From the NCBI GenBank assembly GCA_021804985.1, contig JAJZGD010000001.1:9827-73826 (forward strand): a stretch of 64,000 nt of DNA, read 5' to 3'. Positions 11,039-60,344 of the stretch are shown piece after piece (within the stretch, counting starts at the first letter, position 1; every line of letters starts with the position of its first letter). Source of the DNA: Planctomycetota bacterium. GTDB lineage: Bacteria; Planctomycetota; Phycisphaerae; WQYP01. Below the pieces are notes generated by a model. That model ran no database searches. It saw nothing but the letters and a program-made list of their open reading frames with translations, and was not told the origin of the DNA. Position numbers and translations under genes: made by a program.

Positions 11039-12013
11039 ATGAAATACGAATCGCCACCTCTGTCACAATTTGCGTTCGATTACGAATCTAAGCGGATCGG
11101 CAAGTCACTAATTGTGCATGCGGATTGTCTGGAATGGCTGGGTCGCGTGCCGAAGGACACTTTGCACGGAATCGTAACGGACCCGCCGTACGGGGTAAAG
11201 GAATACGATTTTGATCAATTGGAAAAGCGGGCCAACGGTAACGGCGGCGTCTGGCGTATCCCACCTTCATTTGATGGGCATACCCGTGCACCGCTGCCAC
11301 GGTTTACGGCGCTCGATGGACAGGATCGCATGCGATTGAGCCGGTTCTTCACGGAATGGGCACGCGCGGCAGGCCACGCATTGCGACCCGGAGGGCATGT
11401 GTTCATTGCCACAAATGCCTTCTTGGCACCGTTGATGTATTCGGCCCTTATGGCCGGTGGGTTGGAATTTCGCGGACAGATTATTCGCCTGGTGCGAACA
11501 CTCCGGGGCGGTGACCGTCCGAAGAATGCGGAGGTGGAATTTCCCGGGGTGTCGTCCCTGCCCCGTGGATGCTATGAGCCATGGGGCTTGTTCCGCAAAC
11601 CGATGTTGCTTGGAATGAAAGTCAGTGACTGCCTCCGTGAATTCCAGACCGGCGGCTTGCGACGGACTAAAGATGATCTACCGTTTTCCGACACAATTTC
11701 GAGCGGCCGGACGCCGCGCCGCGAAAGACTTATAGCGAATCATCCGAGCCTCAAACCCCAATCATTCTTGCGCCAGATCGTCCGCGCATCGTTGCCGATG
11801 GGAGTAGGCGTTGTGGCAGATCCGTTCGCTGGGTCAGGCTCCACGGTAGCGGCCGCAGAGGCGGTTGGCGCGTGGGCGATTGGTGTTGAGCGTTTCGCCG
11901 ACTATTTCGAAATGGCGCAGGATGCCATTCCACGACTGGCAAAGCTGAAACTGGACGAGAAGGCCACCGAGGAGATTGGAGCGAGAGAGTCCCAGTCGTT
12001 ACTTTTTGGTTGA
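11039..12013 (+). CDS. Type II DNA methyltransferase, beta-class N6-adenine or N4-cytosine specific
   Basis: motif IV IVTDPPYG near the N-terminus, AdoMet motif I DPFAGSGST near the C-terminus (beta-class circular permutation), HPSLKPQSFLRQIV segment typical of the N6_N4_Mtase family. Confidence 0.85.
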   Translation: MKYESPPLSQFAFDYESKRIGKSLIVHADCLEWLGRVPKDTLHGIVTDPPYGVKEYDFDQLEKRANGNGGVWRIPPSFDGHTRAPLPRFTALDGQDRMRLSRFFTEWARAAGHALRPGGHVFIATNAFLAPLMYSALMAGGLEFRGQIIRLVRTLRGGDRPKNAEVEFPGVSSLPRGCYEPWGLFRKPMLLGMKVSDCLREFQTGGLRRTKDDLPFSDTISSGRTPRRERLIANHPSLKPQSFLRQIVRASLPMGVGVVADPFAGSGSTVAAAEAVGAWAIGVERFADYFEMAQDAIPRLAKLKLDEKATEEIGARESQSLLFG

Positions 12014-12688
12014 TTGGACGGGCTGGGGTTTGCCGCGAGCACGGTAAATCCAATTGGCTTCCATTTTTTCGAAGCCAGTGCGCATCACGCTTGCCGTTAT
12101 GGTACGGCGGCTGGTGGCCAATCTGCCGGAGAAATTCCAATCCGATTTGGTGATTTTGGCTCCGATGACCTTGACAAATTGGAAGGGCCTAAAGGCGAGT
12201 CCCCTCGTGGCGTCGCGGGGTGCGCTACTATCGAAAACAAACACCATGAGCCACACATTTTCGGGGTTGTGGCCCTGCCAGCCGCTGGGGCGGCGGGAGG
12301 CCTTGATTTCAATCCCTCGGTCAGCGTGAAGGCAGGCGCCGTTTGCATATACGCCAATCGGGATGAGATCGGGGTGGCCGTTGTGAAAGCGGTTCTTGAT
12401 CAAGCCGGGGCAATGTTTCGGAATAGCCGCCGCCAGGAATTCACTTACGATACTGCTAAAATTTGCAGGCATCAGGAATAATTCGAGGGGATCCATGCCC
12501 TTAGAAACCAGGGAACGGTTGATCAGATGTAGGAAAGCGAGAAAATCTTGCATTGCTTTTTTGACGTCCAGCGTGCCTAGGCCGTACGGAAGCTGACACT
12601 CGCGGTTAAACCCTTGTTGGTTGAGGCCGATGGGCACGGCTGTTTTTTTTGAAAGTTTTGCAGCTGGCATGGCGGTAAAATACTCCAT
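11999..12688 (-). CDS. putative Type II restriction endonuclease (PD-(D/E)xK candidate)
   Basis: 229 aa with no recognisable family; contains GHPDLIP...(20 aa)...GIEIKAS matching a PD-x(n)-(D/E)xK nuclease core; convergent with and overlapping the methyltransferase 3' end by 15 bp. Confidence 0.45.
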   Translation of the reverse strand: MEYFTAMPAAKLSKKTAVPIGLNQQGFNRECQLPYGLGTLDVKKAMQDFLAFLHLINRSLVSKGMDPLELFLMPANFSSIVSEFLAAAIPKHCPGLIKNRFHNGHPDLIPIGVYANGACLHADRGIEIKASRRPSGWQGHNPENVWLMVFVFDSSAPRDATRGLAFRPFQFVKVIGAKITKSDWNFSGRLATSRRTITASVMRTGFEKMEANWIYRARGKPQPVQSTKK

Positions 12689-14584: not shown

Positions 14585-15883
14585 CTACTTCTGGGGTACC
14601 AAAGCCGTTCGGCCATCAACGAAATAGGCATGCTTACGTGCCAGGCATTGCTGGCGGAGGGCGGAAATTTTATGCGGGGCGGCAAATTTTAATTCGGGCA
14701 CCCATTTGATCATCGCCCGCGCACGATGCTCAAATTCGCGGCGAAGTGCCGGTTGCTTATTTCTCGGAGAATCAATCCAGACTGTGACGTGATCGGCGCC
14801 AAGCGCGTCGGAGGTGGCGTGCACCAGAAACTCGCCGGTGGCGGCAAAAGATCGCGCCAAATCAGCGAGTGCGGAAGCAAACGTCGATACCCCTTGCACT
14901 TTTAATAATTGGGCGGCTCGTCCGAGCACAGGTCCCAAGCGCGGGGTCTGGCGGCCACATGGGCACACGCCCCGATAAAGCGCAGCGATGTCGCCGGTGT
15001 CGTAGCGTAAAAGAGGCATGGCATCCTGCTTGAAAGGCGTTATGACGACGCGTCCCGGTGTGCCCGAAGCGCACGGTTGATCGGCGGCATCGAGAATTTC
15101 GACCATTCCCAGATGGGGATTAACATGGCCACCATCGCATTGGGGGCCTTGCGCCAATGTCGTGCAGGTTTCAGTGGTGGCGTATGTTGAAAGGAGCGGC
15201 GCCGATACGCAATGCATCAGGCTTTGGCTGAGTATATTGGGCGATAGGCTCGCATCGCGCAGGGGCTCGCCGATGCAAATAACGGCGGCCAGGTTTCGGG
15301 GCAACTTCAAACCACGCGAACACCAGGCAGCCAGCAAAGATGGGACGGCAATGAGAAACCAGCGGCCGCCAGGCTTGAGTGGGCGTTGGTGAAGCGTTTG
15401 AAAATCAGCCATGGCAGGGCCCATTCGCAAGCACGTTGCGCCGAGCCGCTGCGCACCGAGCCAATACGCCAACCCCGCCACAAACAAACGGTCCATGCCC
15501 ACACCAATGAGAACCCCGTCGCCGCGACGAATGCCGGCGAGGGCGAAGGCGGCCGCTTCATTTTCAGCCAGTCGGTTCAGGTCGCGCTCAGCCAGTGCGA
15601 TATGCACCGGCGAGCCTGTGGTTCCAGAGGTTGTTACCCATTCGCGGATAGCGGCAGCCGGCACGGCGAGAAAATCCAATCCATGGTTCACTAAATCGAT
15701 TTTTGTGGTTGTCGGCAGATTGGGAAATACTTTGGCGGCAGCCGCAGCCGATAGGGTCGGCAGGCCAATTCGCCTCAGATAAAATGGGGCCTTCAAGGCG
15801 TGTCGCATTTGCGCAAGCAGCAATGCATTGATGGCGGCGGTTTTTCGCGATTGGCGCCCCGCGCTGCGAATGTCTTTATGCAA
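14585..15883 (-). CDS. adenylate-forming acyl/aryl-CoA ligase, phenylacetate-CoA ligase (PaaK) / coenzyme F390 synthetase family
   Basis: AMP-binding motifs [13 protein letters not shown] and RYDTGD with the domain spacing typical of PaaK-like ligases. Confidence 0.7.
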
Positions 15884-15910
15884 TGGAACGATCTCCTGCT
15901 TGTTACGGTG

Positions 15911-18900
15911 TTATGGTGTTTTGGCCAGTCGCAGATATCGCCGAAGCGCCACACGTCTTGCCCGATATGGCGGATCCAGCAAAAGCGTTTTGGTTAAAAG
16001 GATTGCAGCCCGCTTTTTGCGACCCATGGCCAAATCGGCGCGGCCCGCTAGTTCATACGCGGAAAAGAAATCAGGATCATATTGCAATGCCACCATGGCT
16101 TTATGGTAGGCCAGCTTAAAATGGTTCTTGGCGAGGGCATGGTAGCCGGAATGCAGCGCCGCTCGGGCTATCTCAAAGCGATGCCAGCCGCCCGAAACTA
16201 AAAAATGGTCCGCGGGAATGGATGGCAAGAGAACTTTTGCGAGCGGCGGTGGCTCTTTAGAAAGCATGGGTAGCACCTTTACGCCGATATAGGCGCCTTC
16301 GGCATAGGGCCACGCCGCCACCCACAGTTCTCCGTTGGTTAAGTTCATAATGACCGAATGCGTAGCGATGAGCGCATCAATCGCATTCCGATTGCCGTAG
16401 CCGATAAACCGGCCATGCACGCTGGCTTTGTCTCTTAAAAGCTTCGCCAGATTAATCGCATTAACTTTTCCGCGCATGGCATTGATCAGCCGCAGGGCGC
16501 GTGCCATGCGAAACCGCGATGTAGATTGGCGGATTCGCGCTGCATTAACAGGATCGTTCCGAAATACCGGTGCGGTAAATTGATTGGCCACGGCGGCCCG
16601 CTGATCGACGTGAATCACGGCGCAATGCAGCGGCGATTTTTCAATGATTATGCATTGACCGGTTTTGCCGTCGCCCACCACAATGCTGTCGGCCACAAAC
16701 ACCGGCGCACGCCGGAAGATGGATACGGCTTGTGAAAGGCTGTGAGCAAACTGCAGCACCTGTCGCGCGACAATAATCGTCGGCTCACCGATCGGCTTAA
16801 AGCCGACCGTCGCGGCAGCATTGATAAACAAACCTATCTTCTCGCTATTAAAGCCGGTAACACAGCCGCTAAGCCCCGGCCACGCGACGGTCACAAAGCC
16901 GTACCCATGTGAGGGGCGAACGAAGGTGATACTTTTCTGCCGGTTAAAAGCCGGGCCGCCTTCAAAGTCAAAATTTCGGGCGAGCCATAGACAATTATCC
17001 CCCGACCACGCCGGGCACGCCGCAACGCCGGTACAGCCAACGGCGTGCGCATCAATCAGAGGGTTATCAATCAGGTTTTGAGATATGTCGTCGAGTGCTT
17101 CATAAGACAGCAGCCGCGCATAAGTAGGACTCAAATAGGCGTGTAAATCGGGATGCGAACGCGACTCGGCATAGACTTCATGGCGGATATAGGCGGGGAT
17201 ATAATGCGGCAGCCTAAGCATATCCAGTGCCACGCCGCGGGTGATGACCCACTGCGCCCAGAGTGATGGCACAAAATGATGCAATTGATCGAGCATGTCA
17301 TTTTCGATCTCGGTATCGACCGGGGCGCCCAGTGCACCGTCATCGTAGCCCAGTGTGCCCGATGAGCCGCCAACGGACATCACCCACACGCCGTGAACTC
17401 GGCGCATCCACGCATGACCAATTTTCCAACTATTCGGGCCGGTCTGCGTAACGGTGCGGTGCTGGGGCAATCGAACGGCCTTATCAGGGCGTGCGCTAGC
17501 CATCAGCAGTTGTCCGATGCATACCACCAGCATGGCCAGCGCCGCAGCCGCAGCGGCGATCCGAATCAGCCAAAGCAGCGCGGACTCGGGCACGCGTCGC
17601 CAGCTGCGGCAACCGCGGCAACGGTTATTAACGGTATGGCAGCACCAGCGCACGAATGGCCCAACGCAGAGCAATGCCGCAAGGTATCCGCCGCAGATTC
17701 CCGCCACGAGCGTAAGCCCCACCCAATGCAATGCCGGGTGAGCAGCCAGAATAATTGCACCCGAGCCTAATATGGTGGTCAGGGCGCAGATGCCGGTGGT
17801 AAGAATGCGCGGTGATGGTTTATCGGTGCGAAGTGCCGGATCGCTGGCGGTATAGACGCCGTAATCAATGGCGACACCCATGGTAAACAGCAGGGGTATC
17901 ATGGCGAGAAAATTCAGCCCCCCACCAATCCATTGCGCCACGCCTGCCAGCCAGATGAACCCGACCAACAGCGAAAGGGATGCGGCCGCCGCGATTTCCA
18001 ATCGGCGAAAATAGATGCAAACCGGCAAGAAAATGGCCAGGAACACCCAGGGAAAAAGGAACTCCGTCTGGGCCTTGGATTGCTGCGTAGCATTAAACAG
18101 CAGCGCGCTGCCATCAACGAGCAGTACGTGGGGAAATAGCAGTTCAATTTCGGAGGTCCAATCGGTTTGCATTCGCGGCGAGAGTTTGCGATTGGGATAG
18201 ACCACAGTCGCGAGGTAGTGGTGGCTGCGGATTTGAAATACTTGGCCAGGAAAAAGACTTAATGGTGAGTTGCGCAGCCGCGTCGGCGCAGCAAACTGCG
18301 TTGCACGGTGAAAAAACAAAGTGCTTTGCAATGACGGAGCGCGAAAGCCCTGGCGGCTTGCAGCGATTTTCAGGCGTGCATCGATGGCCGCAATCCGTGA
18401 GGCCGTCCAGAAATGCTGCCATCGGGCGATACGCCGGTTAAGCCGCCGGGTGTCCGGCAGCAGGTTGGAAGGTGAAATAAATCCGCCAATCAATTTTTCC
18501 CGCTTCATTCGCGCCAGATCGCTCTGGAGCATCTGCGTTTGCTTAAGCAGTTTGCCGGCACTTCGGCTGCGGGTAATAACCACTCCATGGTGGGCGCTGT
18601 TGCCCCATACTTTAAAAAAGCCTTGCTGCGCGGCCGTTTGTGCCGGGGACGCCCCATTTAAATCGGCGGGGTTAATGTTGTAGTGGAGTTTGGCGGCCTG
18701 CAGCAACAAAAAACTTGTCACGACGGAAAATGCGATAAATGCCACCCAGCGCACCCACCGCGGCAGAGCGAACTGTATTTCGATCGCACGTCGGGGACGA
18801 CAAAACTCGGAGAGATAGGCGGGCAGAATCAGGAACGTAACAAGCCATATCAGCAGCGTGCCCATCGCGATAAATAAACCCATCGCTCGCAGGCCGGGCG

Positions 18901-20119
18901 CCGTGCAGAACGCCAGCGCTCCATAGCCGGTGATGCTGGTCAGAGCGCTCATCGTAATAGGGCCAAACAGCGACCGTGCTGCGACCGCCGCCTCATTGGT
19001 ATGGCTGCCTGGCAACGGAGAGCGAGAACGGCCGTAGGCACCGAGTATTTGAATGCCATAATCAGTCGTAGCGCCAAGAATTAAGCCGGAGAAGGCTAAA
19101 ATCATCAGCGGCAGGTGCGCGCCCGTCAGACCCGATAGCCCCAGCGCCGTGCCAAGCCCCACCACCGGTGGCAGCATGCAGATAAGAAGCGTGCCGATCC
19201 GACGAAAATAGAACCAAATGACAGCCGCCACCAACAGCGTTCCAATGATGGAGACCACGGCAACATCGCGCTTGATTTGGGCGGCATTTTGGACGTACTG
19301 AGTGTAAGGGCCGATGATCCAAAAATGCACATGCGGATAGCGCCGCTGAATGCTCGCGGTTACCGACGAAAGCTGGTTTAGCATTTGCGCGGCGAGCCGC
19401 GTTTGCTGCGGCGAAAACGTCGGCGATAAAACGATCATCGCATGGGTGCGATTTTTGGCCATCAGCAGGCCACCGTTCATGGCCAGATGCGAAATGTTCA
19501 GCGGTGTGGCCGCATTTGCCGATTGCAGTTGCCGGTAAAGCAAGGTGCGGATCGCGAGAGGATCAGTCGTAAGGTTTGACAGATCGAGCAAACCCCCGGG
19601 GGCTTCAAGCCGTTCATGAATGTCGGCAAAGTGCTTCTGCATCCAAGGATCGCCGGTGCGAGCCTTAAGTTTTTGAAAGGATCGACGTGTCAGCAAGGCA
19701 GGAATATCCGCCGTAATGGTGCGTTGGGCCCGATTGAGCGCCGGCAGCGATACGCCATCCCAAAGTGTGCCAAAGATGGGATGCTTACGAAGCGCAGCCG
19801 CCATGGCCCGTACCGCGGAGGGCAATTGCTTTTTAAATTGCGGTTTGGTGTGCAGATCGATATGGAGCGAATCGGCAAGCTGCGGCAATGCGGATATCTG
19901 CCGCCAGGACTGCACCTGTCGGCTGTTTTGCGAAAAAAACAGCAGGACGTTGGTTTGCCAGTGGATGGCGGTGGAAGCGGCTGCGCAAAGCACGGCCGCA
20001 ACAACGAGAAACGCGGAAAGCCATCGGCGGTGGCGCCCCAAAAAGCCGTACCAATGTGCCATCAGTATTAGCAGCGGATCGCGATTTTGGCCGGCGCCCG
20101 GCGCGGCAGGCTCAATCAT
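15911..20119 (-). CDS. fusion protein: MMPL/RND-type exporter (12 TM with two large periplasmic loops) + extra TM + Ntn-hydrolase C45 acyltransferase-like domain + C-terminal TPR repeats
   Basis: two 6-TM bundles (approx aa 285-440 and 690-830) separated by soluble loops as in MMPL/HpnN exporters; Cys-rich linker WCCHTVNNRCRGCRSW; 13th TM (aa 850-870); soluble domain with HAVG|CTGVAACPAWSGDNCLWLARNFDFEGG resembling the Gly-Cys autoproteolytic/nucleophile site of C45 acyl-CoA:6-APA acyltransferase/choloylglycine-hydrolase-type Ntn enzymes; TPR-like tail aa 1300-1402. Confidence 0.6.
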   Translation of the reverse strand: MIEPAAPGAGQNRDPLLILMAHWYGFLGRHRRWLSAFLVVAAVLCAAASTAIHWQTNVLLFFSQNSRQVQSWRQISALPQLADSLHIDLHTKPQFKKQLPSAVRAMAAALRKHPIFGTLWDGVSLPALNRAQRTITADIPALLTRRSFQKLKARTGDPWMQKHFADIHERLEAPGGLLDLSNLTTDPLAIRTLLYRQLQSANAATPLNISHLAMNGGLLMAKNRTHAMIVLSPTFSPQQTRLAAQMLNQLSSVTASIQRRYPHVHFWIIGPYTQYVQNAAQIKRDVAVVSIIGTLLVAAVIWFYFRRIGTLLICMLPPVVGLGTALGLSGLTGAHLPLMILAFSGLILGATTDYGIQILGAYGRSRSPLPGSHTNEAAVAARSLFGPITMSALTSITGYGALAFCTAPGLRAMGLFIAMGTLLIWLVTFLILPAYLSEFCRPRRAIEIQFALPRWVRWVAFIAFSVVTSFLLLQAAKLHYNINPADLNGASPAQTAAQQGFFKVWGNSAHHGVVITRSRSAGKLLKQTQMLQSDLARMKREKLIGGFISPSNLLPDTRRLNRRIARWQHFWTASRIAAIDARLKIAASRQGFRAPSLQSTLFFHRATQFAAPTRLRNSPLSLFPGQVFQIRSHHYLATVVYPNRKLSPRMQTDWTSEIELLFPHVLLVDGSALLFNATQQSKAQTEFLFPWVFLAIFLPVCIYFRRLEIAAAASLSLLVGFIWLAGVAQWIGGGLNFLAMIPLLFTMGVAIDYGVYTASDPALRTDKPSPRILTTGICALTTILGSGAIILAAHPALHWVGLTLVAGICGGYLAALLCVGPFVRWCCHTVNNRCRGCRSWRRVPESALLWLIRIAAAAAALAMLVVCIGQLLMASARPDKAVRLPQHRTVTQTGPNSWKIGHAWMRRVHGVWVMSVGGSSGTLGYDDGALGAPVDTEIENDMLDQLHHFVPSLWAQWVITRGVALDMLRLPHYIPAYIRHEVYAESRSHPDLHAYLSPTYARLLSYEALDDISQNLIDNPLIDAHAVGCTGVAACPAWSGDNCLWLARNFDFEGGPAFNRQKSITFVRPSHGYGFVTVAWPGLSGCVTGFNSEKIGLFINAAATVGFKPIGEPTIIVARQVLQFAHSLSQAVSIFRRAPVFVADSIVVGDGKTGQCIIIEKSPLHCAVIHVDQRAAVANQFTAPVFRNDPVNAARIRQSTSRFRMARALRLINAMRGKVNAINLAKLLRDKASVHGRFIGYGNRNAIDALIATHSVIMNLTNGELWVAAWPYAEGAYIGVKVLPMLSKEPPPLAKVLLPSIPADHFLVSGGWHRFEIARAALHSGYHALAKNHFKLAYHKAMVALQYDPDFFSAYELAGRADLAMGRKKRAAILLTKTLLLDPPYRARRVALRRYLRLAKTP

Positions 20120-20877
20120 GGCGGCCCCACCGGCTTGAAGAGATTGAGGGGAAATACCGGATTAATCGCGGTGCGCGAAAACCAGTAAGTCACGGCCCCT
20201 TGACGCGTGTGAATTTCAATGGCCGCGAGAAAATCTGAATGGCGATCGAAGAACAGTCTGATTTTTGACACTTTGGCGCGCATGGCTTTGAGCCGTGGTA
20301 TCAGGCTAAAGGCCCAAACGCCACCGGTTGGTGCGGGCGCATAATGCACATCACGGCGTGGTGGTTTGGGCAGCATGCGGTGAGATAATGCGATGCGCCC
20401 CCACCGCGTCAGGGCCTTGGCGTTGGGACTGCTGCCAAGGGTGGCAAAGTAGCCCATGATGTAAGCAATTTTCGCTCCGCTGGCGCCTTTTATGCGCTTC
20501 CAGCCATGGCCGACGCGGCATGCAAAAAGCCGCTTGCCGTCGAGCAGATAGACGGCCGGGGTGGGCCATTGGATCGCATAGCGTACCCGCTGTGACCGCT
20601 CAAGGCAGATGGTTCCGCCACTAGCAAACCCATGGGTTAAAAGCGGGGATTTTTCATAGCAGAAAAAATGGGATTTGAGGCGGTTCCACTTCTGGGCAGC
20701 AAGTATCGCCGCCATTCGCGCGGCGGGATTTAAATGGCTGGCCTTTGCCGCGATTGCCGTTGCTCGTACGGCAAGCATCGGCAGCATAATTGCAAGGACG
20801 ATCGCCACCACTGCCGGGCCTATGCGGCAGAGAAACCGAGTGCAAAAGTTTAATCGCTTAGCCATATCCACCGACAT
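20116..20877 (-). CDS. membrane-anchored hypothetical protein, possibly LolA-like lipid/lipoprotein carrier
   Basis: N-terminal TM/signal anchor; beta-rich C-terminus (IRLFFDRHSDFLAAIEIHTRQGAVTYWFS...NPVFPLNLF) reminiscent of LolA-like proteins; stop overlaps start of the exporter gene (ATGA). Confidence 0.35.
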   Translation of the reverse strand: MSVDMAKRLNFCTRFLCRIGPAVVAIVLAIMLPMLAVRATAIAAKASHLNPAARMAAILAAQKWNRLKSHFFCYEKSPLLTHGFASGGTICLERSQRVRYAIQWPTPAVYLLDGKRLFACRVGHGWKRIKGASGAKIAYIMGYFATLGSSPNAKALTRWGRIALSHRMLPKPPRRDVHYAPAPTGGVWAFSLIPRLKAMRAKVSKIRLFFDRHSDFLAAIEIHTRQGAVTYWFSRTAINPVFPLNLFKPVGPP

Positions 20878-20950
20878 GTTAACGGAAAGTCAACACGTAA
20901 AGCTGCGCCGCGCTGAAATCAGCGATAGTGGTCAGCCGGCGCTGATCGCG

Positions 20951-20956
20951 TATAAT
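20951..20956 (+). promoter_or_regulatory. candidate -10 box (TATAAT) in divergent intergenic region
   Basis: exact TATAAT hexamer read directly 18 bp upstream of the 20974 ATG; no convincing -35. Confidence 0.2.
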
Positions 20957-20973
20957 CATGCCCGGCGTGGTGG

Positions 20974-23900
20974 ATGTATCAGCCCATCATGGGCAAAGTC
21001 GGGATTCGCTGCAGCTTACCCATGCTGCAGAGGGGGGCGGTATCTGCAAAAGGTTTCATTTCCATGCCCATCCGCGTCGCTCTAAATCACGTTACTCGCT
21101 ATAAATATGATCGCTATGTGCGCATGTCGCCGCACGTGGTTCGGCTGCGTCCCGCTCCGCATACCCGCACGCCGATCCTCACTTACCGTTTGAAGGTGGC
21201 GCCGGAAAAGCACTTTATTAATTGGCAACAGGATCCATATTCCAACTATTTGGCGCGGCTTGCCTTCCCGGAACCCGCCACCGAGCTGCGCGTAGAGGTT
21301 GATCTGACCGCCGACATGACGGTGATCAACCCGTTCGATTTTTTCGTTGACGCGGCCGCGGAAAAATATCCTTTTGAATATGACGCCGTGATGAAAAAGG
21401 AACTCCAGGCCTATTTGGAAGTGGGTCCGCCTGGCCCTGAACTTGCCAAGCTGATTGCGGCGCACCAGAGACGTGGTTTACGTTCGATTGATTTTCTGGT
21501 GGATCTGAATCGTGATATTCACCAAAGGCTCAAATATCTTATTCGCATGGAGCCGGGCGTACAGTCCCCGGCGGAAACGCTCCGTATGGGGATGGGATCA
21601 TGCCGCGATTTTGCGTGGCTGCTGGTAAATCTGGCCCGAAATTTGGGACTGGCAGCCCGCTTCGTATCCGGCTATCTGATTCAGTTGGTGGCGGATGTAA
21701 AGCCCTTGGATGGGCCGGCGGGAACTCCGGTAGATTTTACCGACCTGCATGCATGGGCCGAGATATATCTGCCGGGTGCCGGTTGGGTAGGGTTGGATTC
21801 CACGAGCGGCTTATTTACCGGCGAGGGTCATATTCCCCTGGCATGCACGGCGGAGCCGAGTTCAGCATCGCCGGTAAGCGGCATGGTGGATGATTGCAAC
21901 GTCGAATTCAGTTTTGAAATGTCCGTGCGGCGCATCTTTGAAAGCCCGCGTGTAACCAAGCCGTATACGCCCGAACAATGGCAGAAAATCATCGATCTCG
22001 GGCACCGCGTTGATACGGATATTCAGGCGTCGGACATTCGACTGACGGTTGGTGGGGAGCCGACGTTCGTATCGGTGGATGATATGGATGGCGCCGAGTG
22101 GAACACCACGGCCATGGGCCCGCGGAAGCGTCTGCTCGCCGGAAATCTTCTGAAGCGATTGCAGAAGCGCTTTGCGCCGGGGGGCTTTCTGCATCATGGT
22201 CAGGGCAAATGGTATCCGGGCGAATCGTTACCCCGGTGGACATTTGGCTGCTATTGGCGCAAGGATGGGCAGCCCATATGGCAAAACCCGGCACTGATCG
22301 CCGACGAAGATCAAAGTTACCAATACGGCCCGACCCACGCCCGTGAATTTCTGCAAGAGCTTATCAAGCGTTTGGGTGAAGGGGCGCTTTTAGAGCACGC
22401 CCTGCCCGCCTTTGAAGATGTCTGGTATTACCTCTGGAAAGAGCGGCGGCTGCCCGCCAATGTCGATCCATTTGTTAACCATCTGGAAAACCCGGAAGAT
22501 CGGGCACGGCTCGCCAAAGTATTTGAGCAGGGGCTTGATCAGAATGTCGGTTATGCGCTGCCGATTCGCAATCTTGGCAGTGCGGGCAGTGGCTATTGGC
22601 AGACCGGTTCGTGGTTCTTCCGGTCGGAGCGCATGTATCTTATTCCTGGCGATTCGCCCATGGGTTACCGTCTGCCGTTGGATTCTTTGCCATGGGTTCC
22701 CAAGGCTGATTTTCCTTACATATACCATCATGATCCAATGGAAACGCTGCGGCCATTGCCGGCGGCGCGACTGCGGCAGCGGTACGTCAGCGGAGCGCCG
22801 GAGGCAGTTACGCCGCCGGGCATTCGTGAGCAATCGCTCGATGACATCGCGGGGCCCGACGGCACCATGAGCGAAGGTTTGCTCGCGGAATACCGACGCC
22901 TTCTGGCGGAAAATCCTCCCGGAGAGTTTGAAGCCGGCAAACCCGCGCCGTGGATCATCCGCACGGCTTTATGCGTTGAACCGAGACAGGGAATTCTGCG
23001 CATTTTTATGCCGCCGGTGCGCGACACGGAAGATTATCTTGATCTTATCAGTCGCGTGGAGGAAACGGCAGCGTATCTTTCCATGCCAGTCATGTTTGAA
23101 GGTTATCCCCCCCCACCGGATCCCCGGCTCAACGTGCTCAAGGTGACGCCCGACCCCGGCGTCATTGAAGTTAATATTCATCCGGTAACGACATGGGATG
23201 ACGCGGTCAGCGTTACCACGGGTCTTTACCAGGATGCACACGAATCGCGCCTGGGCACGGAAAAATTCATGCTGGATGGCCGGCATTCAGGCACGGGCGG
23301 CGGCAACCACATTGTTGTGGGCGGCAGCACGCCTTCGGATTCGCCATTTCTGCGCCGGCCCGATTTGCTCAAGAGCCTCGTATCGTTTTGGCATAACCAT
23401 CCGTCGTTGTCTTACCTTTTTTCGGGAACGTTTATTGGCCCGACCAGCCAGGCGCCGCGGGTGGATGAAGGCCGGTTTGATAACACCTATGAACTGGAAA
23501 TTGCGCGGGGCGAAATTGGCAAGGCCGGTGCGGAAACGCCGCCTTGGATGGTCGATCGCATTTTCCGAAATTTGCTGGTGGATCTGACGGGCAACACGCA
23601 TCGGGCGGAATTCTGCATCGACAAGCTATACAGCCCCGATTCGGCCGCCGGCCGCATGGGCGTCGTGGAGTTCCGCGGTTTCGAAATGCCGCCCCATGCG
23701 CAAATGTCGCTCACGCAGCAGCTGCTGCTGCGTTCGCTGATCGCGCAGTTCTGGCATGAGCCTTATGAGGCCGGCCTGATACGGTGGAATTCGGAACTTC
23801 ATGACCGGTTTCTGCTTCCGCACTTTACCAACGCCGACTTTCAGGATGTGCTCGCGTCGCTCAAACGCCATCCGCTTGAACCGCAGTGGTTCGCTCCGCA

Positions 23901-24462
23901 CATGGAATTCCGCTTTCCGCAAATTGGCGACGTAACTTTACCGAGCACCGGCGGCGTAAAATTGGAACTGCGGCAGGCGATTGAGCCCTGGAACGTACTG
24001 GGCGAAGAACCGGGTGGTGGCGGAACCGTGCGCTACGTAGACTCGTCGGTTGAACGGGTTGAAATGAAGGTGCAGGGCCTGGTCGATGGGCGACACCGCG
24101 TGGCCTGCAACGGCGTGGAAATTCCGCTGCATGGCACCGGCGTGCGCGGCGAGTTTGTCGCTGGCGTGCGGTATCGCGCATGGCAGCCCGCCACCTGCCT
24201 GCATCCAACCATCGGCATTCATTCACCTCTGATTTTTGATCTGGTGGATACCTGGAACAACCGATCGGTCGGCGGGTGCACTTTTCACAGCGTGCATCCG
24301 GGCGGCCGCTCATTTGCCACCTTTCCTGTCAATAGCTTCGAGGCGGAATCCCGGCGAGCGGCACGATTCTTTAAATTTGGCCACACGCCCGGCCCCATCA
24401 CGCTCGAAGAGCTGGAGCGTTCCAAGGAATTTCCGCTTACGCTGGACCTTCGACGACTTTAG
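20974..24462 (+). CDS. large transglutaminase-like protein with C-terminal DUF2126-type domain
   Basis: Bact_transglu_N-like start (MPIRVALNHVTRYKYDRY, probable true start at 21064), transglutaminase core with Cys/His/Asp (GSCRDFAWLL, DLHAWAEIY, GLD), about 1100 aa architecture characteristic of DUF2126 proteins. Confidence 0.8.
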   Translation: MYQPIMGKVGIRCSLPMLQRGAVSAKGFISMPIRVALNHVTRYKYDRYVRMSPHVVRLRPAPHTRTPILTYRLKVAPEKHFINWQQDPYSNYLARLAFPEPATELRVEVDLTADMTVINPFDFFVDAAAEKYPFEYDAVMKKELQAYLEVGPPGPELAKLIAAHQRRGLRSIDFLVDLNRDIHQRLKYLIRMEPGVQSPAETLRMGMGSCRDFAWLLVNLARNLGLAARFVSGYLIQLVADVKPLDGPAGTPVDFTDLHAWAEIYLPGAGWVGLDSTSGLFTGEGHIPLACTAEPSSASPVSGMVDDCNVEFSFEMSVRRIFESPRVTKPYTPEQWQKIIDLGHRVDTDIQASDIRLTVGGEPTFVSVDDMDGAEWNTTAMGPRKRLLAGNLLKRLQKRFAPGGFLHHGQGKWYPGESLPRWTFGCYWRKDGQPIWQNPALIADEDQSYQYGPTHAREFLQELIKRLGEGALLEHALPAFEDVWYYLWKERRLPANVDPFVNHLENPEDRARLAKVFEQGLDQNVGYALPIRNLGSAGSGYWQTGSWFFRSERMYLIPGDSPMGYRLPLDSLPWVPKADFPYIYHHDPMETLRPLPAARLRQRYVSGAPEAVTPPGIREQSLDDIAGPDGTMSEGLLAEYRRLLAENPPGEFEAGKPAPWIIRTALCVEPRQGILRIFMPPVRDTEDYLDLISRVEETAAYLSMPVMFEGYPPPPDPRLNVLKVTPDPGVIEVNIHPVTTWDDAVSVTTGLYQDAHESRLGTEKFMLDGRHSGTGGGNHIVVGGSTPSDSPFLRRPDLLKSLVSFWHNHPSLSYLFSGTFIGPTSQAPRVDEGRFDNTYELEIARGEIGKAGAETPPWMVDRIFRNLLVDLTGNTHRAEFCIDKLYSPDSAAGRMGVVEFRGFEMPPHAQMSLTQQLLLRSLIAQFWHEPYEAGLIRWNSELHDRFLLPHFTNADFQDVLASLKRHPLEPQWFAPHMEFRFPQIGDVTLPSTGGVKLELRQAIEPWNVLGEEPGGGGTVRYVDSSVERVEMKVQGLVDGRHRVACNGVEIPLHGTGVRGEFVAGVRYRAWQPATCLHPTIGIHSPLIFDLVDTWNNRSVGGCTFHSVHPGGRSFATFPVNSFEAESRRAARFFKFGHTPGPITLEELERSKEFPLTLDLRRL

Positions 24463-24508
24463 GCGCCCTTGTGGCGAACGATGCATTTATGGATGATCAT
24501 GGACGATT

Positions 24509-27073
24509 ATGACGGCCGGCCAAGTCGATATTTCTGCAGCGGACGAAGCCCAGGGGCCCGGGGGGCTGTTTGGTGCCTACCGCACTGACTCGCAGGTGCC
24601 CGATGAGATGATGGACGCAAGGGGCGCCGTGCGGCCGCACTGGCAGATGATCACCAATCTGCTTGATGATCTCGGCCCTACCGAGCTCGAGCGGCGGTGG
24701 GCCACATCCCGCCAGTTAATTCACGACAACGGCGTTACCTACAATGTCTATGGCGATCCCGCCGGTTTGGATCGGCCGTGGGTGCTTGACGCGCTGCCAT
24801 TGGTCTTTTCGGCTTCGGAGTGGGCCACCCTCAGTGAAGGTCTTATCCAGCGTGCGAGGGTACTTGATCTGGCCTTGGCCGATCTTTACGGCCCGCAGAA
24901 ACTTCTGCAGGATTCAGTTATTCCACCGGAAGTGATATTTGCGAATCCGAGCTTCCTGCGCCCGTTGCGTGGTGTGCGGCCCGAAGGCAACCGCTGGCTG
25001 CACATGGCCGCGACGGATGTGGGCCGCAACCGCGACGGCACGCTATGTATTTTGACGGATCGCACGCAGGCGCCATCCGGCGCCGGCTACGCGCTGGAAA
25101 ATCGGATCGTCATCTCGCGCGCCCTGCCGGATATCTTTCGCGATTGCCGCGTCAGCCGACTCGCCACCTTTTTTCGGTCGATGCGGAATCTTTTACAGAT
25201 GATGGCACCGCGTAGTCGGGAAAATCCGCGTATCGTGCTATTAACGCCTGGCCCATACAACGAAACCTATTTTGAACACGCGTATCTCGCCCGCTATCTC
25301 GGGTATACCCTGGTTGAAGGGGCGGACCTTACCGTACGAGATAATCGTGTATATATGAAGATGCTTGGTGGTTTGCAGCAGGTGGATGTGATTTTACGCC
25401 GTCAGGACGACGTATATTGCGATCCATTGGAACTGCTGCCCGATAGCGCGCTGGGGATTCCGGGGCTTGTTCAGGCGGTGCATTCGGGACAGGTCACGGT
25501 GGCCAATGCACTCGGTTCAGGTGTGATGGAATCGCCGGCAATCGAAATGTTTATACCGCGTATCTGTCGGCATTTGCTGGGCGAAGAGTTAAGACTTCCC
25601 GCGGTCCGTTCATACTGGTGCGGCGATCCGGAGGCACTCGGATATGTGCTGGCCAATCTCAGCAGGATACTTATTAAGCCGGCGTTCTACACACCTGGGC
25701 AATTTCCCATACCCACCGAATCATTAACACAGGCGCAGCTCGCCGAGCTCCGCAGCAAAATCATCGCATATCCTTCAGAGTTTGTCGGCGAAGAACAGAT
25801 CCCTCTTTCAACGGCGCCAATTCTGGCTAACGGCCGGGTGGAACCACGACATATCGCCTTTCGCGCTCATATGGTTGCTAACGCCGATACCTACACGGTA
25901 ATGCCCGGCGGCCTGACGCGTTTTTCAATCTCGCCGGATTCGATGATCGTCGCCATGCAGCGCGGCGGCGGATCCAAGGATACGTGGATTCTCTCGGGCG
26001 GCCCGGTTGATCCCTTCAGCTTTCTCACCCCGCCCGGGGCCGCCGTGCGTATTTCCCGCGCCGGTGGCGATCTTTCCAGCCGCGTAGCTGACAATTTATT
26101 CTGGCTGGGCCGGTACGTGGAACGAGCGGAATCGCTGGCGCGTCTGGCACGCGGAATGGTTGCCCGACTGGTGGATCAAAACTTTGAATCCAGCGCGGAG
26201 CTGCCGATTCTGCTTACTGCCCTGATCGCGCAGGCCAATCTCAAGCCCCATGAAATTGCCGATCAAACGCGAGAATCGCTGCTCGCGGCCATTCTGCTGG
26301 ACGCCAAATATACCGATGGCCTGCAATCCACTCTCGGCGCGATTTATCAGTCGGCAAGTTTGGTGCGCGACCGAATGTCCATCGACACATGGCGCATCAT
26401 CAACCGGCTCGATCAAGACTTTACCACTCGGCCGACCACCACGCTGGAGCTTAGCGAACTGCTGGCATCATTGGACAAGCTTATCGTCACGTTTGCCGCG
26501 TTTGGCGGATTGGCGATGGAGTCGATGACGCGCGGCCTTGCATGGCGCTTTCTCGATATGGGCCGCCGCATTGAGCGCGGGCTAAGCATGGCGCAACTCT
26601 GCATTCATGCAATGACACTTCCTCAGCCGCGCGAAGGGTTGATTCTTGAAGCGCTACTGGAAATCGCGGATTCCGCGATCACGTATCGTCGCCGTTACAT
26701 GACGACACTGCAGGTTCCGCTCGTGGCCGATTTGCTTCTGGCCGACGAGACCAATCCGCGTGCCGTAGCTTTTCAGTTGATGCGCATGCAGGAGCATCTC
26801 GGGGCGCTTCCGCGTCTTCATCAGGAAATCCAATTAACGCCTGCGGATCAAATTATTCTTCGGCGACTGACAGAACTTAGGCTCGCGGATTTCAGCCTGC
26901 TTTCGCCGATGGAAGGTGCCCAACGCACCCACCTGCGAAGCATGCTTGAAAATATGACGGCGGACTTATTCAAGCTTTCCGATCTGCTGAGCCAAACCTA
27001 CCTGAGCCATGCGGGGCCCGGACGGCAGCTTGGCTCTCCGATACCGGCGAGTGCCGGCAAGGGAAGCAGTTAA
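24509..27073 (+). CDS. circularly permuted type-2 ATP-grasp amidoligase fused to alpha-E domain
   Basis: N-terminal CP-ATP-grasp pattern (VRPHW...GVTYNVYGD) followed by the helical alpha-E region in one 854-aa ORF; canonical partners of transglutaminase-like genes. Confidence 0.75.
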   Translation: MTAGQVDISAADEAQGPGGLFGAYRTDSQVPDEMMDARGAVRPHWQMITNLLDDLGPTELERRWATSRQLIHDNGVTYNVYGDPAGLDRPWVLDALPLVFSASEWATLSEGLIQRARVLDLALADLYGPQKLLQDSVIPPEVIFANPSFLRPLRGVRPEGNRWLHMAATDVGRNRDGTLCILTDRTQAPSGAGYALENRIVISRALPDIFRDCRVSRLATFFRSMRNLLQMMAPRSRENPRIVLLTPGPYNETYFEHAYLARYLGYTLVEGADLTVRDNRVYMKMLGGLQQVDVILRRQDDVYCDPLELLPDSALGIPGLVQAVHSGQVTVANALGSGVMESPAIEMFIPRICRHLLGEELRLPAVRSYWCGDPEALGYVLANLSRILIKPAFYTPGQFPIPTESLTQAQLAELRSKIIAYPSEFVGEEQIPLSTAPILANGRVEPRHIAFRAHMVANADTYTVMPGGLTRFSISPDSMIVAMQRGGGSKDTWILSGGPVDPFSFLTPPGAAVRISRAGGDLSSRVADNLFWLGRYVERAESLARLARGMVARLVDQNFESSAELPILLTALIAQANLKPHEIADQTRESLLAAILLDAKYTDGLQSTLGAIYQSASLVRDRMSIDTWRIINRLDQDFTTRPTTTLELSELLASLDKLIVTFAAFGGLAMESMTRGLAWRFLDMGRRIERGLSMAQLCIHAMTLPQPREGLILEALLEIADSAITYRRRYMTTLQVPLVADLLLADETNPRAVAFQLMRMQEHLGALPRLHQEIQLTPADQIILRRLTELRLADFSLLSPMEGAQRTHLRSMLENMTADLFKLSDLLSQTYLSHAGPGRQLGSPIPASAGKGSS

Positions 27074-27102
27074 CTTCAGGTAATCTGAGCAGCGAGTATT
27101 CC

Positions 27103-28014
27103 ATGGCCATCTACCGAATTCGGCATCTCACCCGGTACCGGTATCAAGAGCCGGTTACGGTTTGCCACAATATGGCTCATCTGATTCCGCGCGATTCGCC
27201 CCGTCATACCTGGACACAAATTGATCTGGATATTTCGCCGGCGCCATCCCGCGCCACCCGCAACGATTATTTCGGCAATCGGCTTACGGTTTTCTCTATC
27301 GAGGAGCCCCACCGCGAACTTCAAGTCGTTTCCCGCTGCATGGTCGATCTGGCGCCGCCGCGTACGGTGTCGCTTTTTCCCACCAGCCCATGGGAAATGG
27401 TACGTCAATCTCTGGCTGATCAGCCGCGGGGTGAAGTGCTTGCCGCGTCTGAGTTTCGCTTTAGATCTCCGCATGTGGAATGGAATTCTGATATTCAGGA
27501 ATGGGCGGCCATATCCTTTACGCCGCAACGACCCCTTGCGGAAGTGGTTCTGGATCTGTCGCACCGCATCCATACCCAATTTAAATTTGTCGGTGGCGCT
27601 ACGACGGTCGCGACCGAGGTGAGCGAAGTGTTCACGGAAAAAGTGGGCGTATGCCAGGATTTTGCCCATCTGGCGGTGGCATGCATGCGGTCCATGGGGC
27701 TGGCAGCTCGATATGTATCGGGCTATTTGGTAACCGTTCCGCCGCCCGGCAAGCCGCGGCTAATTGGAGCAGACGCATCGCATGCCTGGGTTAGTGTATA
27801 CGTTCCGGAACTTGGCTGGATGGATGTCGATCCCACCAACCATATCTGGCCGCTGGATAAACATATCACAGTGGCCTGGGGTCGCGATTTTTCTGATGTG
27901 TCACCGCTTCGCGGCGTGATTCTTGGCGGCGGCAAGCATGAAGTGATCGTAGCGGTGGATGTCATTCCATTGGACGGCCCGGACGATTCAACCGCGCCCC
28001 CAATTCATAATTGA
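27103..28014 (+). CDS. transglutaminase-like protein (Bact_transglu_N + transglutaminase core)
   Basis: MAIYRIRHLTRYRYQEPV start, catalytic Cys in GVCQDFAHLAV, His in ASHAWVSVYV, Asp in MDVDPTN. Confidence 0.8.
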   Translation: MAIYRIRHLTRYRYQEPVTVCHNMAHLIPRDSPRHTWTQIDLDISPAPSRATRNDYFGNRLTVFSIEEPHRELQVVSRCMVDLAPPRTVSLFPTSPWEMVRQSLADQPRGEVLAASEFRFRSPHVEWNSDIQEWAAISFTPQRPLAEVVLDLSHRIHTQFKFVGGATTVATEVSEVFTEKVGVCQDFAHLAVACMRSMGLAARYVSGYLVTVPPPGKPRLIGADASHAWVSVYVPELGWMDVDPTNHIWPLDKHITVAWGRDFSDVSPLRGVILGGGKHEVIVAVDVIPLDGPDDSTAPPIHN

Positions 28015-28080
28015 AACTCTTGCGTGGCCGCCGGATTCTAAATCACGGCTTGCTTAGCCGCTGCGGATGGAGCGCCGTAT

Positions 28081-28905
28081 TTATTGCGGTTCGGTGTCAG
28101 TTCCATTGTTCCGATCGGCGCTTTTGGGCTCTTTGAGCTGCTGGTCCTGCGGCAGATCCTTGAGGCTCGAGAGGCCGAAGAGTTCAAGGAAGTGCCGCGT
28201 TGTGCCGTAGAGCATGGGTCGTCCAATTTCCTCCGCCCGGCCCACAATTTTTACCAGATTGTATTCCATCAAGGTTCGGATGACCTCGCCGCACGCCACG
28301 CCTCGAATTGCCTCCACGTCCACACGTAAAATCGGCTGTCGATAGGCGATAATCGCGAGCGTCTCCAAGGCGGCGGGTGTCAGGCGCCCTTCATCGCGGG
28401 CACGCGTCAGCCGCTGAATATATTGGGCATATTGCGGCAACGTCAAAAGTTGATAACCGCCTGCTCGTTCTTCAATGCGATAAGCCGCCTGGCGCTGGCC
28501 ATAACTTTCGTTGAGTTGCTGCACCGCGAGCTTAACGGGTTTGGACGAATCCAATCCCAGGGTTTGCGCCAGCTTGCCCGCCGATAAAGGCGCATCGCTG
28601 GAAAATAAGATCGCTTCGAGCACCGGCCGAAGTTCCATGCCTTCAAGTTCAAAGGCGGGCGCAGTCTGCACCGCTGAATCATTGGACGGGGCCAATGTAT
28701 CGGTTTCGTTTGGCGTTAGAGGCGCATCGGCGGCAGCCTCTGAATCATTGGCCTTGGCGGCCATAGCAACATCGGCCGCGGGTATGGCGGGTTCGACGTA
28801 ATCCTGTTTATCAGAAGGTATTTCGCTCATGCGGTGGCCGATCCAAATGATAGTGGTCTTGCAGGCATGCCCGACGCATGACCTGGGAAACCTCTGCTCC
28901 AGCAA
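28081..28905 (-). CDS. scpB: segregation and condensation protein B
   Basis: ScpB winged-helix repeats (LEAILFSSDAPLS...; ALETLAIIAYRQPI...VRGV); probable true start MSEIP near 28830. Confidence 0.8.
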   Translation of the reverse strand: MLEQRFPRSCVGHACKTTIIWIGHRMSEIPSDKQDYVEPAIPAADVAMAAKANDSEAAADAPLTPNETDTLAPSNDSAVQTAPAFELEGMELRPVLEAILFSSDAPLSAGKLAQTLGLDSSKPVKLAVQQLNESYGQRQAAYRIEERAGGYQLLTLPQYAQYIQRLTRARDEGRLTPAALETLAIIAYRQPILRVDVEAIRGVACGEVIRTLMEYNLVKIVGRAEEIGRPMLYGTTRHFLELFGLSSLKDLPQDQQLKEPKSADRNNGTDTEPQ

Positions 28906-59400: not shown

Positions 59401-60327
59401 TTGCCACGACTACAGTATCGCTTTTTCAAACCCACCCAGGCTGCCCAATTGCGGCGGATGGAATTTACGGTCCGGGGTGTGGTAGAGGGTGTTTACGCGG
59501 GTTTACATAAAAGCCCCCACAAAGGCTTTTCCATCGAATTTGCCGAGCACCGCGAATATGTTCCCGGCGATGAGATCAAACATCTGGACTGGACCGTACT
59601 GGCCAAAACCGACCGTTATTACATCAAGCAATATGAGCAAGAAACGAATATGCGCGCGACCATCTGCATCGATGCCTCGGCATCCATGCGCTTTGGAACC
59701 GCCTCCCAGGTTGACCCAGCCACCGGCAAAGCGATGTCGGTAAGCAAATTTGAGTATGCGTCGGTGCTGGCTTGTTCATTGGCCTATATGCTTTCTAATC
59801 AGCAGGACATGGTGGGGCTGATCGGCTTTGACGACAAAATACGCCTGGAGATTCCGCAGGGAAACGGCCCTTCGCATTTGGATCAGATATTCGTCAGTTT
59901 GGAAAAACTCTCGCCGGCCCGCACCACGAATCTTGCCGACACGCTGCATATGGTGGCCAACAAAATTCCCCGGCGCGGTCTGGTCATTTTAATCAGCGAT
60001 TTGTTTGACGACCCGGATCGGCTGACTTCGGCTTTTGAACACCTGCGTCATTTTCGGCACCAGCTGGTGGTTTTGCACGTCATGGATCGGCAGGAAATGC
60101 TTTTAAATTACAACCGTCCGGTGACGTTTGAAGATATGGAGGATGGGTCGCGCCTGCAGATTGATCCGAAAAATATCCGCCAGGAGTATCAGCGCGAAGT
60201 TCAAAACTTTGTCGATCTGATTAAACGCAAATGTGGTCAGTCTCGCATCGACTATGTTCATGCCCTGACCGATGTGCCCTGGGACAAGCAGATTCGCGAT
60301 TTGATGGCGCGGACTTCGCACCGTTAG
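59401..60327 (+). CDS. DUF58 family protein (VWA-like)
   Basis: DUF58 hallmark GFSIEFAEHREYVPGDEIKHLDW and MIDAS-like DASASM. Confidence 0.75.
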   Translation: MPRLQYRFFKPTQAAQLRRMEFTVRGVVEGVYAGLHKSPHKGFSIEFAEHREYVPGDEIKHLDWTVLAKTDRYYIKQYEQETNMRATICIDASASMRFGTASQVDPATGKAMSVSKFEYASVLACSLAYMLSNQQDMVGLIGFDDKIRLEIPQGNGPSHLDQIFVSLEKLSPARTTNLADTLHMVANKIPRRGLVILISDLFDDPDRLTSAFEHLRHFRHQLVVLHVMDRQEMLLNYNRPVTFEDMEDGSRLQIDPKNIRQEYQREVQNFVDLIKRKCGQSRIDYVHALTDVPWDKQIRDLMARTSHR

Positions 60328-60344
60328 GTTGAATTGAAGGAACT

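Follow-up and report, generated by a model that had tools for sequence, protein, structure and literature searches.

The 64,000-nucleotide stretch of contig JAJZGD010000001.1 analyzed here (the window), from a Planctomycetota genome assembly (GCA_021804985.1), contains three co-directional genes that form an ordinary, intact member of an already known, widespread operon family, typified by Rv2566 of Mycobacterium tuberculosis (Iyer, Burroughs and Aravind, 2008, PMC2588565). Since a structure model of the DUF2126 domain in gene 1 has a glutamine-synthetase-type fold, the cassette is predicted to encode two ATP-dependent carboxylate-amine ligases of unrelated folds: DUF2126, which resembles glutamine synthetase and glutamate-cysteine ligase, and a circularly permuted (CP) ATP-grasp domain in gene 2, which resembles glutathionylspermidine synthetase (GspS). 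Together with two transglutaminase-like thiol domains, these probably constitute a paired cycle in which an amide is made and removed, with a small molecule or short peptide as the favored substrate. The features of the cassette are as follows.

20974-24462, + strand: gene 1, longest open reading frame (ORF), 1162 amino acids
21064-24462, + strand: gene 1 from its conserved start, 1132 amino acids; Bact_transglu_N and transglutaminase-like papain-fold core, predicted DUF2126 ligase, predicted C-terminal beta-sandwich
24509-27073, + strand: gene 2, 854 amino acids; CP ATP-grasp at about residues 32-496, a linker of about 25 residues, alpha-E at about residues 522-832
27103-28014, + strand: gene 3, 303 amino acids; stand-alone Bact_transglu_N and transglutaminase-like core
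20929-20956, + strand: promoter-like site (TGGTCA, 16-nucleotide spacer, TATAAT), about 108 nucleotides 5' of the likely start codon of gene 1; a candidate only as regards function

Domain composition of the three genes

An earlier reading of this DNA from its letters alone (the sequence-only reading) had placed the three genes at these positions and given sizes of 854 and 303 amino acids for genes 2 and 3, all of which the ORFs confirm. The domain names it proposed for genes 1-3 were likewise all recovered by Pfam, while none of the NCBIfam naming models matches any of the three proteins. Gene 1 contains Bact_transglu_N (E = 3e-24), Transglut_core (1e-16), and DUF2126 (E = 0, residues 306-1160). 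The description of gene 1 as a transglutaminase-like protein of about 1100 amino acids holds for its N-terminal domain, where the triad C180/H229/D245 (C210/H259/D275 in the 1162-residue ORF) is invariant in 24 homologues, but about 830 further residues are not transglutaminase-like. In the structure model these residues form a ligase of glutamine synthetase fold plus a beta-sandwich, so DUF2126, as a second ligase of a different fold, had been missed. The modeled fold is that of glutamine synthetase, glutamate-cysteine ligase, and PafA, which would place the domain in the carboxylate-amine (glutamine synthetase-like) ligase superfamily, and its best structural matches are small-molecule ligases. 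Invariant Glu, His, and Arg residues of the domain, for example in the motifs GVIEVN, GTGGGNH, and HRAEF, are candidates for a metal and ATP site. A sequence and profile search of the PDB with gene 1 returned transglutaminase-like chains only, with no PafA or Dop chain at E values up to 10.

The ATG at 21064 is almost certainly where gene 1 truly starts, because every one of the 24 aligned homologues begins at this residue and it is also the start used by gene calls on contigs of a sister strain (described below); the 30 codons from 20974 are probably a leader.

Gene 2 matches CP_ATPgrasp_2 (1e-148, residues 97-472) and Alpha-E (1e-68, residues 522-832). Its residues 32-496 align with the whole chain of PDB 3n6x (E = 4e-99), a stand-alone CP ATP-grasp protein of 474 residues that, unlike gene 2, has no alpha-E domain, and whose label of “putative glutathionylspermidine synthase” is a structural-genomics annotation rather than a tested activity. 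The likeness of gene 2 to GspS is a likeness to this structure, and the name is to be read as putative. The alpha-E part is modeled as an all-helical bundle (mean pLDDT, the predicted local distance difference test score, of 88, with the first ~23 residues disordered), for which no specific solved structural relative was found.

Gene 3 consists of Bact_transglu_N (3e-25) and Transglut_core (5e-20), and shares 27.6% identity with the N-terminal part of gene 1. In alignments with PDB 3isr (2e-13) and 6g49, its C184/H227/D243 coincide with the Cys, His, and Asp of those structures, so that the Cys/His/Asp triads claimed for genes 1 and 3 are both present, the former by the alignment of 24 homologues and the latter by comparison with these structures. 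Fold and triad are compatible with either a hydrolase or a transferase. Because neither a hydrophobic segment nor a signal-like N-terminus was found in any of the three proteins, they are predicted to be cytoplasmic.

Distribution of the cassette and of the gene 2 fusion

The continuity of the 24509-27073 frame was checked against contigs assembled from two other sequencing runs, SRR17102674 (L001) and SRR17102675 (L002), in the public Logan assemblies. These represent a sister strain that is 99.3-99.5% identical to the window, without indels over 22.5 kb (window 14509-37073 compared with L001, and 19912-28682 with L002), and both runs carry the same variant. All 854 codons of gene 2 are open in this strain, which excludes a sequencing error as the origin of the fusion. 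That an assembly or sequencing artefact joined two genes has next to no probability: we found no point in its favor, and fused ORFs of 818-1040 codons (stop to stop) occur in 66 other genomes, both domains are present in all 120 of the best database homologues, and conserved motifs span the junction of the two Pfam domains in 26 homologues. Across the three genes the sister strain differs at 33 nucleotides but only 5 amino acids, with no stops; the cassette is therefore under purifying selection. A database protein listed as 100% identical to the gene 2 product (P0001) differs from it at 2 residues.

A genome scan anchored on gene 1 gave at least 600 stretches, and the five domains of the window cassette were mapped onto the ORFs of the best 80 loci. 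They represent Verrucomicrobiota, Acidobacteriota, Planctomycetota, and alpha-, beta-, gamma-, and delta-proteobacteria; among the genera are Pseudomonas, Burkholderia, Serratia, and Marinobacter, with Pseudomonas fluorescens and Serratia plymuthica as two species that have the same cassette. Seventy of the loci include 2.8 kb or more of DNA downstream of the DUF2126 gene, and 66 of these 70 have a fused ATP-grasp/alpha-E ORF there (directly adjacent in 61 of the 66), compared to none with an unfused pair in the same position. The small transglutaminase-like gene comes immediately after the fused gene in 63 of the 64 loci that contain enough further DNA. At the protein level, each of the 120 best homologues of gene 2 is about 770-910 amino acids long and combines PF14403 with PF04168; the number of clusters that match gene 2 at E ≤ 1e-10 is at least 8000. 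The fusion, which the sequence-only reading had singled out as an unusual trait, is instead the norm for the family, and on these counts (fused in 66 of 70 loci, unfused at that position in none) DUF2126 has the fused gene as its standard partner. Plasmid tblastn counts were not used for the ratio of fused to unfused genes, because adjacent unfused genes can merge into one place.

Four loci (L004, L012, L026, and L073) have a DUF2126 gene with 3.4-8.4 kb of downstream sequence and neither an ATP-grasp/alpha-E nor a small transglutaminase-like gene in the fetched locus; these are rare solo occurrences of the large protein.

An unfused CP ATP-grasp gene adjoins the DUF2126 cassette in 34 of the 80 loci, and in 19 of these 34 an unfused alpha-E gene is detectable as well, giving a five-gene version (examples of the adjoining set are L084:1183-10374, L005:7449-16750, and L007:6805-17826). 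The unfused ATP-grasp gene often lies close upstream on the same strand, sometimes with an extra small transglutaminase-like gene. The unfused paralogues belong to the Anbu-type cassette (see below) and are about 35% (ATP-grasp) and 25% (alpha-E) identical to the corresponding domains of gene 2. An IncFII plasmid of Enterobacter roggenkampii, as annotated by PGAP, encodes in order ATP-grasp, alpha-E, a transglutaminase family protein (1114 amino acids), a fused ATP-grasp protein (803 amino acids), and a second transglutaminase family protein; Fimbriiglobus ruber also has the five-gene version. Because the unfused set adjoins the DUF2126 cassette in 34 of 80 genomes, its placement suggests that the two paralogous systems may work together. 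The window holds only the minimal three-gene version, without the unfused pair, and no second copy of any cassette domain was found within its 64 kb.

Gene 1 retains 55-75% identity over its full length across distant phyla (Planctomycetota, Verrucomicrobiota, Acidobacteriota, and Proteobacteria), with several hundred invariant positions. Such conservation is unusually strong for an uncharacterized protein with a patchy distribution. As a pattern in aligned sequences, it may be a sign that the protein works in a large obligate assembly or on a universal substrate, or that it has spread horizontally in recent times.

Other than the unfused ATP-grasp/alpha-E pair, which is optional, no neighboring gene recurs widely across the 80 reference loci, and the cassette behaves as a self-contained module. 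The next most frequent neighbor cluster, in 19 of the 80 loci, is an apparent shadow ORF on the strand opposite the unfused ATP-grasp gene.

For comparison with M. tuberculosis, we take Rv2567 to be a fused ATP-grasp/alpha-E protein and Rv2569c, encoded two genes from it, to be transglutaminase-like. The locus in the window has every feature of the Rv2566-type cassette that could be examined, namely the gene 1 domains, a fused gene 2 followed by a small transglutaminase-like gene, and both triads. Gene 1 has exactly the architecture described by Iyer et al. (PMC2588565), with no architectural difference, and in both cases the gene for an ATP-binding protein comes next; Rv2567 is treated as an ATP-binding enzyme in a recent study (bioRxiv 10.64898/2026.04.15.718621). 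The connection drawn by the sequence-only reading to a ligase/peptidase system predicted by comparative genomics is supported by Iyer et al. (2008, PMC2588565) and by Iyer et al. (2009), the latter as it is represented in PMC6376114, PMC5666114, and PMC3495828.

The Anbu operon and its stand-alone relatives, insofar as they are described in Valas and Bourne (2008, PMC3235984), PMC6376114, PMC5666114, and Iyer et al. (2009), share CP ATP-grasp (COG2308), alpha-E (COG2307), and transglutaminase-like (COG1305) proteins with the locus. Their ATP-grasp and alpha-E genes are separate, however, often with a proteasome-like Anbu gene, and they have no DUF2126 ligase, whereas here ATP-grasp and alpha-E are a single 854-codon ORF. 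No proteasome-family or Anbu gene was found in the 38 of 46 window ORFs of at least 200 amino acids that were scanned; 7 of the 8 omitted overlap longer annotated ORFs. A family ATP-grasp protein of the stand-alone type, from the Anbu operon of Y. bercovieri, releases phosphate from ATP, and no partner interactions or substrates were found for it (PMC6376114). The related Anbu operon has been reported as induced by nitrogen starvation (cited in PMC6376114), and an RpoN site is predicted for a CP_ATPgrasp gene in Bradyrhizobium (PMC13207237). A sigma-54 promoter as a clue to nitrogen regulation was rejected for the window, as there is no sigma-54-like site in the intergenic region upstream of the cassette and matches across the whole window are at chance level (41 vs. 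44 expected).

The predicted fold of DUF2126 is also like that of the PafA/Dop ligases of the Pup system and of GCS2/glutamine synthetase, and by this likeness DUF2126 would carry out ATP-dependent carboxylate-amine ligation via an acyl-phosphate. The resemblance to the Pup system is in fold alone. The cassette has no Pup-like ORF, proteasome, or sequence-level similarity to PafA/Dop, the gaps of 46 nucleotides between genes 1 and 2 and 29 nucleotides between genes 2 and 3 leave no room for a tag ORF, and DUF2126 is fused to a thiol peptidase-like domain and a beta-sandwich. Eukaryotic tubulin ligases of the TTL family and ciliary transglutaminase-like peptidases (Zhang and Aravind, 2012, PMC3495828) follow a similar logic of ATP-grasp “writer” and transglutaminase-like “eraser”; this comparison is one of analogy and of a proposed evolutionary link only.

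Proposed function and alternatives

The glutamine synthetase/glutamate-cysteine ligase and ATP-grasp superfamilies both form amides via acyl-phosphate intermediates (PMC6376114). In the proposed make-and-remove cycle, each ligase would activate a carboxylate as an acyl-phosphate and join it to an amine, and the two together would build a short peptide-like or gamma-glutamyl-type amide, either on a small molecule or as a short protein tag, with one or two amide bonds made by the operon at the cost of ATP. The two thiol domains would then hydrolyze or transfer the ligase-made amide. Alpha-E may serve as a non-catalytic adaptor or regulatory module that acts physically with the ATP-grasp; their fusion, as a Rosetta-stone arrangement, argues that the two work as one physical unit. 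As the substrate, we favor a small molecule or short peptide, such as a gamma-glutamyl-type compound, rather than a Pup-like protein tag, because both ligases have small-molecule enzymes as their nearest structural relatives, the intergenic gaps leave no space for a tag ORF, and Iyer et al. (PMC2588565) noted that Pup-like ORFs are absent near the Rv2566-type family.

Several points weigh against this proposal. Confidence in the DUF2126 model is moderate (pLDDT 72.8), and co-transcription of the three genes is inferred only from their spacing and conserved order. In alpha-E, invariant Arg/Glu motifs (GRYxERAE, RRxER, and TYRRRY in 26 homologues) could be catalytic. As the sequence-only reading had held, the system is biochemically uncharacterized: we found no paper that assigns it a function, no report in the literature of a substrate, product, or activity for any cassette member, and no paper at all in a search on “DUF2126.” The only assay we found for the gene 2 orthologue, Rv2567, covered a single reaction and was negative, in that the protein does not make gamma-aminobutyric acid-trehalose (bioRxiv 10.64898/2026.04.15.718621).

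Protein tagging is a serious, though less likely, alternative, in which the ligases would add amino-acid or short-peptide tags (glutamate chains, as in TTL/RimK, or a Pup-like isopeptide), alpha-E would recognize the target, and the transglutaminase-like domains would be de-tagging peptidases. This was the original prediction for operons of ATP-grasp, alpha-E, and transglutaminase-like genes (Iyer et al., 2009, as represented in PMC3495828 and PMC6376114), and the very high conservation of gene 1 across phyla would suit a large complex or a protein substrate that is itself conserved. It is opposed by the lack of a small tag ORF within the cassette or next to it (gaps above; PMC2588565), the lack of a proteasome-like or Anbu gene among the scanned window ORFs, the small-molecule ligases that are the best structural matches, and pull-downs in the related Anbu operon that gave no stable complexes (PMC6376114). 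We regard as rather unlikely the more specific idea of a self-sufficient “writer-eraser” that attaches amino-acid tags to conserved proteins of the cell and takes them off again, with alpha-E for target recognition; the conservation of gene 1 would then reflect its conserved protein substrate. If true, it would represent a new protein-modification pathway across many bacterial phyla, for which the minimal three-gene version offers a clean test case.

A role as exported general proteases, or as factors of the virulence type, with no functional tie to the ligases is very unlikely for the transglutaminase-like proteins. Such a role has been reported for Rv2569c, a putative orthologue of gene 3. 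Rv2569c has been described as a surface “serine protease” that degrades casein and E-cadherin and is inhibited by phenylmethylsulfonyl fluoride (PMSF) and 4-(2-aminoethyl)benzenesulfonyl fluoride (AEBSF) (PMC11081392). If the two are indeed orthologous, this description sits uneasily with what is seen here, a cytoplasmic protein with a Cys triad and a link to ligases: gene 3 has neither a signal peptide nor a hydrophobic segment, its Cys-His-Asp triad aligns to known transglutaminase-like structures, and in 63 of 64 genomes, free-living soil and water bacteria among them, a gene of its type comes after the genes for the cytoplasmic ATP-dependent ligases.

An anti-phage defense or other conflict system, to which a patchy distribution and presence on plasmids (e.g., the Enterobacter IncFII plasmid) might point, is slightly less credible still: it was rejected because none of the three proteins has a PADLOC match at E values up to 0.01, and moreover the flanks consist of housekeeping genes (SMC, QueC, ScpB, PEPCK, exonuclease VII, DapB, EPSP synthase, RpoD, ProRS, and GatAB), no defense-type neighbors recur in the 80 loci, and the sequences are very highly conserved, unlike fast-evolving defense genes.

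The locus itself is of low interest and adds little, as one more intact copy of a widespread operon that occurs in at least 600 sequenced species and is represented by more than 8000 protein clusters. The family as a whole is a worthwhile biochemical target. It is a long-standing “known unknown,” with two apparently different ligases, two thiol peptidase-like domains, and 55-75% identity between phyla, and it is present in Pseudomonas, Burkholderia, Serratia, mycobacteria, and plasmids; solving it would define either a new bacterial amide/peptide metabolism or a new protein modification. By-products of this analysis are the quantified rule that a fused ATP-grasp/alpha-E gene accompanies DUF2126 (in 66 of 70 loci) and support from a structure model for a glutamine synthetase fold in DUF2126.

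Upstream signals and other genes in the window

The sequence-only reading had also pointed to a TATAAT box just upstream of the cassette. The box is present at 20951-20956, with a weak -35 element (TGGTCA), but it carries no evidential weight, because promoter-like sites are no more common in the region than in shuffled sequence (2 found vs. 5.2 expected). No riboswitch or leader RNA was found by Rfam at E values up to 1 in 20600-28300. A convergent scpB gene comes after the cassette, and a DUF1570 protein, of a family typical of planctomycetes, is also encoded in the window. Among the closer homologues of the cassette proteins, the named relatives are metagenome-assembled genomes of Phycisphaerae, and the organism is probably a member of the Planctomycetota, with Phycisphaerae as its likely class.

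On the - strand at 14585-20877, an apparent operon diverges from the cassette. It includes a 1402-amino acid protein in which a C45 (AAT) autoproteolytic acyltransferase/hydrolase domain is fused to a transporter region of the MMPL/RND type; the gene for this protein is preceded by one for a LolA-like protein (231-253 amino acids, with a weak LolA2_flexi match) and followed by one for a protein with a weak AMP-binding-like assignment. The fusion of transporter and acyltransferase looks unusual, and the operon, which is not conserved beside the cassette in other genomes, is possibly a lipid or pigment export module.

On the + strand at 59401-62888, a DUF58/vWA protein is followed by an 847-amino acid protein with an N-terminal BatA (aerotolerance regulator) domain, and the two are part of a MoxR/vWA-type “Bat” cluster. 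Zhang and Aravind link clusters of the Bat type, as the other prokaryotic system, to transglutaminase-like peptidases; no tie between this cluster and the cassette was seen in the window.

At 11039-12688, a gene for an N6/N4 DNA methylase (324 amino acids, + strand) overlaps the end of a convergent 229-amino acid ORF without a Pfam match. The pair may be an orphan methylase or the remnant of a restriction-modification pair.

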